16,274 bases of DNA from a virus (taxonomy: Duplodnaviria > Heunggongvirae > Uroviricota > Caudoviricetes): the IMG/VR virus record IMGVR_UViG_2681813314_000019. One strand, written 5' to 3'. Positions 632-2,300 of the stretch are shown here, in pieces; positions within the stretch are counted from its first letter, which is position 1, and each line of letters opens with the position of its first letter. Both the position numbers and the translations under genes were made by a program. The notes beneath the pieces are model-generated. The model worked only from the letters and a program-made list of their open reading frames with translations. It did no database searches and was not told the origin of the DNA.

Positions 632-1679
632 GCGCCGGGATTTACCCCCTAACCTTTATATAAGAAACAATGGATATTACTGCTACAGGGACCCAAGGAC
701 GGGTAAAGAGTTCGGATTAGGCCGAGACAGGAGGATAGCAATCACTGAAGCAATACAGGCCAATATTGAGTTGCTATCCGGGAACAGGCGTGAGTCACTG
801 ATAGACAGAATTAAAGGCGCTGACGCAATCACTCTTCATGCGTGGCTTGACCGATATGAAACAATCCTCAGCGAGAGGGGTATCAGGCCGAAAACTCTAC
901 TCGACTACGCCAGCAAAATCAGGGCAATCCGAAGAAAATTGCCGGACAAACCGCTCGCTGACATATCAACGAAAGAGGTGGCAGCAATGCTAAACACCTA
1001 CGTAGCAGAAGGTAAAGCGGCTTCCGCAAAATTAATCAGGTCAACCCTTGTTGACGTTTTTCGTGAGGCAATAGCCGAGGGGCATGTGGCTACGAATCCG
1101 GTAACAGCAACCCGCACAGCAAAATCAGAAGTAAGGCGTTCAAGACTGACAGCTAATGAATATGTCGCGATTTACCATGCAGCCGAACCGCTCCCAATCT
1201 GGCTGAGGCTGGCAATGGATTTGGCTGTCGTTACAGGGCAGAGAGTAGGCGATTTATGCAGAATGAAATGGTCAGACATAAACGACAACCATCTTCACAT
1301 TGAGCAGGGTAAAACAGGGGCTAAGCTCGCCATTCCGCTGACGCTAACGATTGACGCGCTCAATATCTCATTGGCTGATACACTACAGAAATGCAGGGAG
1401 GCCAGCGGCAGTGAAACAATAATTGCATCAACGCATCACGAACCGCTTTCCCCGAAAACAGTATCTAAGTATTTTACAAAGGCGAGAAATGCATCTGGAC
1501 TCTCATTTGATGGAGACCCGCCAACATTCCATGAACTGCGCAGCCTGTCGGCGAGGCTATACCGGAATCAGATTGGCGATAAGTTTGCTCAACGTCTTCT
1601 CGGGCATAAATCAGATTCAATGGCGGCGCGTTACAGGGACAGTCGCGGGCGGGAGTGGGACAAAATTGAAATATCATAA
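609..1679 (+). CDS. int: Lambda-family tyrosine integrase (356 aa)
   Basis: The N-terminus [58 protein letters not shown] and C-terminus ...[11 protein letters not shown]...[27 protein letters not shown] match lambda Int. The R-K-H-R-H-Y catalytic positions appear conserved ([27 protein letters not shown]). The central core-binding region differs from lambda, suggesting a different attachment-site specificity. Confidence 0.93.
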
Positions 1680-2300
1680 TGGTTTTATTTTGATTAATAA
1701 TGACCAGCGCACATTAACATATTGATAATTAATGAAATTTTTAATATACAACTTCCATGTCATAAGTTGTTGCAGACTGACTGCGCGCATTCCGTTGTCA
1801 GTTTTCGTGGCGCTTCCGGTGTGGTAGATGACGTAACGCCCCATCCAGACCATTAAGTGCTGGGCATCGCCCTGATCGAAAAAAATCATATCGCCAGGCA
1901 GCGCCTGGTTTATGTCCTGGCCAATAAACTGGCTGTTGTACTGAATCAAATTAATCGCGGTCACGTAGGGGCCGGTTTTCCCGTTCCCCTGATTCCAGTT
2001 TTGCGCCAGTTGACGCTGTCCAGGTGTTAGCGTCATCTCTGGCGGCAAATACTGGCTAGAGAAACCGTTACTTTTTAGCCATTTACTATCGTGAACTTTC
2101 AGCGTCTCGTTCGCCGCAAATCGCACCAGGCCCGCACAATCCTGCTGATACCAGCGTGGACTTGGCCCCTGGCGGAGCTGTTCTTGTGCAATGCGTACAA
2201 ACCAGGCGCGAAACAGCCCGGATTGTTCGACATTCAGCATTTCGCTATGGGCAACAACACAACACAGCCAGCAAATCAGCGCCAGCAGCCCGTGCCTCAT
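1674..2300 (-). CDS. yfaT: YfaT-like DUF1175 family protein; an alternative in-frame start at 2327 would give 217 aa
   Basis: The ORF sits immediately downstream of yfaA on the same strand. The ATG at 2300-2298 overlaps the yfaA stop (ATGA overlap), indicating translational coupling. Position and product match the yfaA-yfaT arrangement of E. coli. The 3' end (1674-~1737) lies within the putative prophage junction and overlaps the last two codons of int. Confidence 0.6.
1730..1765. other. Candidate prophage attachment-site core (att junction) downstream of int
   Basis: About 60 bp past the int stop there is an AT-rich segment, AAATTTTTAATATACAACTTCC (1735-1756), resembling the lambda core GCTTTTTTATACTAAGTTGG. 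It occupies the position relative to int where lambda carries attP/attL. The exact boundaries are not determinable from one junction. Confidence 0.3.

Follow-up and report, generated by a model that had tools for sequence, protein, structure and literature searches.

The stretch of DNA analyzed here (the window) comprises 16,274 nucleotides of IMG/VR virus record IMGVR_UViG_2681813314_000019. Its left part holds one end of an HK022-family prophage, with the excisionase gene xis and the integrase gene int, and converging on int is the Escherichia coli gene yfaT, whose open reading frame (ORF) runs across the prophage junction and is closed by phage DNA. The features that define the locus are as follows.

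413..631, plus strand: xis, excisionase, 72 amino acids (ORF; annotated as excisionase in the identical locus of strain E2863).
609..1679, plus strand: int, HK022-type tyrosine integrase, 356 amino acids (ORF and identity to HK022 Int).
1674-2300, minus strand: yfaT ORF, counted from the ATG chosen by the Prokaryotic Genome Annotation Pipeline (PGAP); 1674-2327 if counted from an upstream GTG.
1752..2300, minus strand: host-derived part of yfaT, residues 1-183, DUF1175/MagC, NlpC/P60-like (identity to prophage-free strains, Pfam PF06672, homology to Protein Data Bank (PDB) entry 7BK8).
1674..1751, minus strand: 3' end that the phage contributes to the chimeric yfaT, 25 codons and TGA (guanine-cytosine (GC) content of 20.5%, no identity to prophage-free strains).

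The xis and int genes overlap at 609-631, and int ends in ...ATA TCA TAA at 1679. On the opposite strand, 1674-1679 read as TTA (leucine) and TGA, the last two codons of the yfaT ORF, with the stop itself being the reverse complement of 1674-1676.

The position of the junction was established by comparing window positions 1600-2400 (megablast) with 5426 complete E. coli genomes, 5373 of which match at least 80% of the query. In a spread sample of 37 rows, every prophage-free match starts at query position 153, which corresponds to window position 1752, and among the matches listed the host-derived part of yfaT (1752-2300) is 96-100% identical to prophage-free E. coli. Pairwise alignment with the prophage-free strain D7 gives the same picture: identity is 100% from 1752 rightward, and the sequences are unrelated leftward. 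The junction is therefore 1751|1752, within yfaT, where the native gene runs on for 75 nt to its stop, and because identity to prophage-free strains ends at 1752, the 78 nt from 1674 to 1751 are phage DNA. This segment supplies codons 184-208 and the stop, and the last 25 residues of the lysogen's YfaT are thus encoded by the phage. The native protein of D7 has 207 residues, with 24 codons and the stop lying past the junction, and the chimera has 208; both read ...MTWK up to the junction and continue with 24 versus 25 differing residues.

An initial annotation, made from the window's letters, had already placed the junction inside the 3' end of yfaT, described a 6-bp convergent overlap of int and yfaT at 1674-1679, and proposed that the C-terminus of YfaT is phage-supplied. 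The alignment that it suggested, of the yfaT 3' end with a prophage-free E. coli, bears out the first and last of these (identity collapses at 1752, the C-terminal residues differ, and attP-arm DNA encodes them), and the overlap is evident from both ORFs and their stops. Its estimate of about 20 phage-encoded codons was right in kind, though the number is 25 sense codons. The attachment core needs to be moved: the AT-rich sequence at ~1735-1756 that it took for the core is, from 1735 to 1751, the core-proximal part of the P' arm, and the common block lies just to the right, at 1752-1766.

The window and strain E2863 are 100% identical over 1560-2400, a segment that spans the junction, and E2863 allows the other end of the prophage to be inspected. 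The displaced native yfaT 3' end lies ~17 kb away, adjoining yfaS, the alpha-2-macroglobulin gene that in D7 starts 23 bp after yfaT. The displaced segment (75 nt plus the core) is kept at the far junction both in E2863 (L003 33001-33090) and in CFSAN029787 (L013 7100-7189); PGAP labels it as a DUF1175 pseudogene, a remnant of 90 bp in E2863.

With both prophage ends in hand, the attachment site can be divided into the following parts, none of which has a strand assigned.

1752..1766: 15-bp common core, CTTCCATGTCATAAG in its attB form and with G at 1763 in attP, from a three-way alignment.
1756..1762: probable 7-bp overlap CATGTCA (TGACATG on the yfaT strand, codons M180-T181-W182), from positional mapping.
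1680..1751: P' arm of attP, 72 bp from the int stop to the core, from alignment to HK022 and lambda.
1697-1706: candidate Int arm-type site P'1, from the ungapped lambda/HK022 P' alignment.
1687-1696: candidate Int arm-type site P'2, from the same alignment.
1676-1685: candidate Int arm-type site P'3, from the same alignment.
1715..1727: candidate integration host factor (IHF) site H', TAACATATTGATA, matched to the reverse complement of the consensus WATCAANNNNTTR.

When the window junction, the attB of D7, and the far junction of E2863 are aligned, a 15-bp block common to attL, attB, and attR emerges, CTTCCATGTCA(T/G)AAG. Its position 12 (window 1763) is T in the int-side junction and in attB, and G in the far junction, in E2863 and also in the independent lineage CFSAN029787. 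Since the two alleles sort to the expected sides in two lineages, exchange takes place to the left of position 12. The attP was reconstructed from both prophage ends because no match in the phage collection carries CTTCCATGTCAGAAG: searches of that collection with the int-to-core segment and with the P arm of the far junction returned no free phage with this attP, and the HK022-family matches end at the core. The reconstructed attP (CTTCCATGTCAGAAG) and attB (CTTCCATGTCATAAG) are identical at 14 of 15 positions, including all positions of the overlap, which was mapped from the lambda (TTTATAC) and HK022 (AGGTGAA) overlaps via ungapped alignment. Window 1680-1766 is thus the int-proximal junction, in the order P' arm, core, host DNA, and is equivalent to the attL of lambda; attB lies inside yfaT codons 180-183.

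The candidate arm sites, in the order P'3, P'2, P'1, read ATAATGGTTT, ATTTTGATTA, and ATAATGACCA in the window versus ATAATGATTT, ATTTTGACTG, and ATAGTGACCT in lambda, the lambda positions used for the mapping being those of the lambda attP map. The candidate IHF match coincides in position with that of lambda, CAACAAATTGATA. Positions 1676-1706 would accordingly hold the three arm-type sites, and 1715-1727 the IHF site, at lambda spacing directly after int. The 3' end of int itself differs from that of its relatives: window 1671-1685 encodes ...EIS* from ATATCATAATGG, and HK022-type relatives encode ...EIDK* from ATCGACAAATGA. This change creates the opposite-strand TGA that ends the chimeric yfaT, and it also alters the P'3 equivalent (ATAATGGTTT vs CAAATGATTT).

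The element belongs with the lambda/HK022-type Int-Xis-attP modules, having a lambda-family integrase with an overlapping upstream xis and a short attP/attB core that contains a 7-bp overlap. Int is identical to HK022 Int at 348 of 355 residues (98%) and Xis to HK022 Xis at 71 of 72 (99%). At the nucleotide level, BLAST matches to phages HK022, mEp235, and Gally and to several Stx1a prophages extend through int and the whole P' arm as far as ~1754 and end there. The 94 nt from an anchor at 1657 to the core, that is, the last 23 nt of int and the P' arm, align without gaps to HK022 (82% identical) and lambda (71%). The segments from int stop to core likewise align gaplessly among the window, HK022, a Stx1a phage, two other yfaT-integrated prophages, and lambda. 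The likeness to HK022 therefore takes in homologous Int, Xis, and P' and P arms and an int stop-to-core spacing of 72-73 bp. It also extends to the outer core CTT...AAG and to the residues typical of HK022 and not of lambda, D99, P282, K283, K287, and R319, which are the same in all the integrases compared; these five are the positions reported to separate HK022 from lambda core specificity (Dorgai/Yagil/Weisberg).

The HK022 attachment specificity, that is, an AGGTGAA overlap and an attB between torS and torT, is absent from the window element. The cores read CTTC-CATGTCA-GAAG at yfaT and CTTA-TTCACCT-AAAG in HK022, with all seven overlap positions and both overlap-flanking positions differing, so that on the yfaT strand the overlap is TGACATG here versus AGGTGAA there. 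The target differs as well, as the attB of HK022 is the torS-torT intergenic region (PMC6814406), whereas here it lies within the yfaT coding sequence. The prophage Stx1a_NIID112183 (LC744181.1) has an Int that equals that of the window except for the C-terminal residue(s), and it carries the HK022 core with torS at its int-side flank. Because the same Int is found at the torS-torT and the yfaT sites, the move seems to have been made through attP: yfaT would have been reached by altering its core, above all the 7-bp overlap, with Int unaltered. The overlap must match between recombination partners but is not read by Int, and retargeting through the core alone fits this rule. The substitutions S137A, S234G, Q261K, and N303D were considered as specificity changes and rejected; the torS-integrated Stx1a phage has them too, and they therefore reflect ancestry and not specificity. 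The pair forms a clean natural example of integrase retargeting, with one HK022-type Int protein and two chromosomal sites.

What, then, does the phage DNA do to the YfaT protein? The initial annotation had pointed to phage 21 at icd and to e14, that is, to a phage that carries a substitute 3' end for the gene it enters. Phage 21 and e14 reportedly carry a homologous copy of the icd 3' end that leaves the enzyme almost unchanged (Campbell 1992; Hill et al. 1989). The resemblance to these elements is real in that a lambdoid phage with a tyrosine integrase has entered a conserved host gene near the 3' end of its coding sequence, and phage DNA extends the ORF. Under this explanation, the substitute end would be selected and the lysogen would keep a functional YfaT. 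The chimera is nearly as long as the native protein (208 vs 207 residues), its putative catalytic residues are kept, and PGAP calls it an intact DUF1175 protein, all of which would agree with a substitute end.

The sequence of the tail speaks against it. The icd tails of phage 21 and e14 are homologous to what they replace, whereas the yfaT tail is unrelated and the conserved end of the domain is lost. Similarity of the 25-residue phage tail to the 24 native residues is no better than that of shuffles (Smith-Waterman p = 0.30 for protein and 0.115 for DNA), and the GC content is 20.5% in the phage-encoded tail DNA versus 42.7% in the native. The attP holds no homologous copy of the displaced 3' end. 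Native YfaT matches Pfam PF06672 (DUF1175/MagC) from residue 20 to 205, reaching profile position 225 of 226 with 196 bits; in the chimera, the match covers residues 20-182, stops at 202 of 226, and scores 153 bits, a loss of 43 bits. The native tail is conserved across the family, with 13 invariant and 4 near-invariant positions of 24 among 41 homologues (down to 63% identity), and the thirteen invariant residues are replaced in the chimera. The native tail is almost unchanged in Pseudomonas aeruginosa MagC (PDB 7BK8), a component of the MagA-F alpha-2-macroglobulin complex, to which YfaT aligns over residues 21-206 (E = 6e-102). Native YfaT shares with this protein its fold and the 24-residue C-terminal motif; unlike MagC, the YfaT of the lysogen is without the motif. 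An AlphaFold2 model of native YfaT superimposes on 7BK8 with template modeling (TM) scores of 0.86/0.93 and a root mean square deviation of 1.5 Å. Its tail forms a beta-strand (residues 196-202) with a predicted local distance difference test (pLDDT) of 93-95, the last strand of the MagC fold. In the chimera, the tail scores are low (pLDDT of 56, 57, and 37 by block), which is weak evidence given that the alignment columns under the tail are those of native tails.

Comparison with other phages at the same place points the same way. In two sister lineages of HK022-like prophages integrated at the same yfaT position, the tail is three residues long: LHV* in CFSAN029787, six more E. coli genomes, and Shigella flexneri contigs, and LYA* in RMDEC465. 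A restored frame is therefore not conserved among the phages at this site, although attB does fall within the coding sequence of a host gene, towards its 3' end. The same frame read through other P' arms also stops at codon 4, giving LYI* in HK022, LYV* in the Stx1a phage, and LAL* in lambda. The HK022 and Stx1a-phage arms hold stops at both codon 4 and codon 11, and lambda and the two other yfaT lineages hold only the first; the window lineage is without these ancestral stops. Their absence would favor a selected substitute end, but a stop-free frame crosses 8.6% of shuffled arms, and the arm is gaplessly homologous to the P' arms of lambda and HK022, those of HK022 and the Stx1a phage adjoining a non-coding attB upstream of torS. 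Selection for a long tail was accordingly rejected as an explanation, since the loss of the stops is compatible with chance given an arm divergence of ~18% and the proportion of open shuffles. The near-native length is most simply a coincidence. Taken together, the substitute-end explanation is largely refuted already, and we consider it highly improbable; the phage 21/icd and e14 comparison of the initial annotation thus fails on five independent counts: the unrelated tail, the truncated Pfam match, the conservation of the residues replaced, the structural models (the weakest of the five for the chimera), and the three-residue sister tails.

Two further tail variants came to light. A second long-tail allele (P0002, a 208-residue cluster representative) has NYQCVNVRW for NYQYVNVRW, a non-synonymous variation within the lineage. 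A 189-residue YfaT variant with the tail LYIKIS (P0003) was discarded as a third tail type, since the gene is incomplete, lying at a contig end, and shows a T5-to-T4 run difference.

A different way to make light of the tail is to suppose that the C-terminus of YfaT is dispensable and that the site is simply a tolerated target. The HK022-type int|yfaT junction occurs in 177 of the 5426 complete genomes (3.3%), including successful O111 enterohemorrhagic E. coli (EHEC) lineages, which is what a tolerated insertion would produce. In K-12, moreover, yfaS is defective, which suggests that E. coli can often do without the operon. Few segments of the family are as conserved as the tail, however, and it forms a confidently predicted beta-strand in a model that matches a crystal structure, and dispensability of the operon in some niches is not the same as dispensability of the tail for the protein. 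We regard neutral truncation as improbable.

The reading that we favor, and consider very probable, is that an HK022-family prophage disrupts yfaT and that the new tail is an accidental read-through of the P' arm, with no repair of the gene. Strand exchange within the overlap TGACATG, or immediately to its left, joins residues 1-183 of YfaT to the P' arm. The yfaT frame then crosses by accident DNA whose predicted role is to bind IHF (H') and the arm domain of Int (P'1-P'3), and ends at the TGA that overlaps the end of int. In the resulting 208-residue chimera, 25 unrelated residues stand in place of the conserved 24-residue C-terminus, the final beta-strand of the MagC fold included. The tail is translated DNA of the candidate Int arm and IHF sites and hence a by-product. 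As the conserved terminal strand is lost, an unstable or inactive YfaT is the most likely outcome, and the chimera is probably non-functional or impaired.

Several points weigh against this reading and should be kept in mind. The putative catalytic NlpC/P60 residues (C55, H148, and H160) all lie upstream of the junction, and some activity could remain. The loss of both stops that the relatives carry in this frame, together with the near-native length, could hint at selection, though p is only ~0.09-0.14. The arm-type and IHF sites were assigned through alignment alone, and AlphaFold is a poor judge of the chimera on account of the native tails in the alignment under its own. As for the consequences set out below, polarity on the downstream genes is deduced from gene order, and the E2863 prophage is a 17-kb remnant with insertion sequence (IS) elements, whose competence for excision is putative.

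The genes on the host side of the junction are as follows.

2297..4033, minus strand: yfaA (DUF2138), the upstream gene in the yfaT operon.
4134-6761, minus strand: gyrA (annotated).

At the level of ORFs, the window from 4134 to 16274 is unremarkable, with large ORFs arranged like an ordinary E. coli chromosomal neighborhood; beyond the annotated gyrA, we take these to be probable ubiG, yfaL, nrdA, and nrdB from their place in the locus.

The yfaT gene is the MagC homologue in the alpha-2-macroglobulin operon yfaA-yfaT-yfaS-yfaQ-yfaP, and in the lysogen the minus-strand order becomes yfaA, yfaT, [prophage], yfaS, yfaQ, yfaP. The prophage puts 17-43 kb between yfaA-yfaT and the macroglobulin gene, and yfaS-yfaQ-yfaP are probably transcriptionally uncoupled from yfaA-yfaT. 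Promoter and terminator scans around both junctions found no more sites than in shuffled sequence, and thus carry no information on yfaS expression or on read-out. Excision by Int and Xis would be expected to return yfaT to its exact native sequence, as the T at 1763 is on the host side of the exchange.

Among the 177 genomes with the junction, the best 60 matches are 100% identical to the window and include O111:H- strain 11128 and many O111:H8 strains. The cargo behind this one att site varies greatly. The E2863 element (L003 33091-49994) is a decayed lambdoid remnant of 17 kb with the type III secretion system effector genes nleA and nleG and two copies of IS1203, and the CFSAN029787 element (L013 ~7190-49990) is a complete-looking, full-size prophage of ~43 kb with ipaHa and four tRNA genes. 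Anecdotally, the operon has decayed further in some lysogens, as seen from IS4 in the yfaT of RMDEC465 (L011 1690-3281) and an internal stop in the yfaP of CFSAN029787 (L013 131-907).

Prophage insertion into yfaT and its disruption are already known. In the portions of these surveys that bear on yfaT, Bobay et al. 2013 list it among the prophage-disrupted genes (PMC3603311), and the TIGER study of Mageeney et al. 2020 treats it as a case of "regulated gene integrity" (PMC7192596), with supplementary file 5 giving a Pfam match that shrinks from HMM positions 5-191 to 5-169 for islands Eco557.50 and Eco615.14. Our analysis agrees with those portions on the target gene and on the conclusion that the domain is cut; relative to them, it adds the naming of the HK022-type integrase, the overlap, the chimeric tail, and the comparison of lineages. 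There is nothing unexpected in the finding as such, the insertion site having been published.

Regulated gene integrity, or active lysogeny, goes a step beyond disruption: the prophage would be a reversible switch, whose regulated excision by Int and Xis re-activates yfaT and the downstream macroglobulin genes. Mageeney et al. 2020 put this forward for yfaT, in the part of the study concerned with the gene (PMC7192596), and several of our observations are in line with it. A conserved DUF1175 domain is disrupted, at least three P'-arm lineages occupy the identical yfaT position, int and xis are intact in the window, and excision would regenerate the exact attB, which is the prerequisite at the level of sequence. 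Against a switch, there is no evidence of excision without loss of the phage, nor of a physiological trigger. Many of the prophages show decay, as in the 17-kb element that holds IS1203 and in the truncated int of Shigella contigs, and the operon decay in some lysogens resembles permanent loss and not switching. As the proposal overlaps with accidental disruption, our preferred explanation, and differs only in claiming regulation, the question is confined to the latter, which we find doubtful.

A related lead concerns transcription out of the prophage. In the 73-bp P' segment of HK022, Carey et al. 2019 located by experiment a promoter that reads outward and drives torS (PMC6814406). The homologous segment of the window, 1680-1751 on the plus strand, points antisense into the yfaT 3' end, and the only promoter-like match, at 1700-1729 (plus strand), is weak and within chance expectation. 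By analogy, the prophage might switch off the alpha-2-macroglobulin operon of O111 and related EHEC reversibly and at several levels, an idea that we rate as rather unlikely. If true, an antisense transcript to yfaT and yfaA would act on top of two other effects, a YfaT without the MagC C-terminus and yfaS-yfaQ-yfaP cut off from the upstream genes.

For those who work with these genomes, the chimera is easily overlooked. PGAP and RefSeq annotate the 208-residue protein (WP_001215757.1) as an ordinary, intact DUF1175 protein, and pangenome and core-gene analyses will treat it as such, though its MagC C-terminus is gone. For the biology of the host, accidental disruption of yfaT means that ~3% of the complete E. 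coli genomes, among them those of O111 EHEC and of enteroinvasive E. coli/Shigella (with ipaH-carrying phages), are probably without a functional Mag-type alpha-2-macroglobulin operon.

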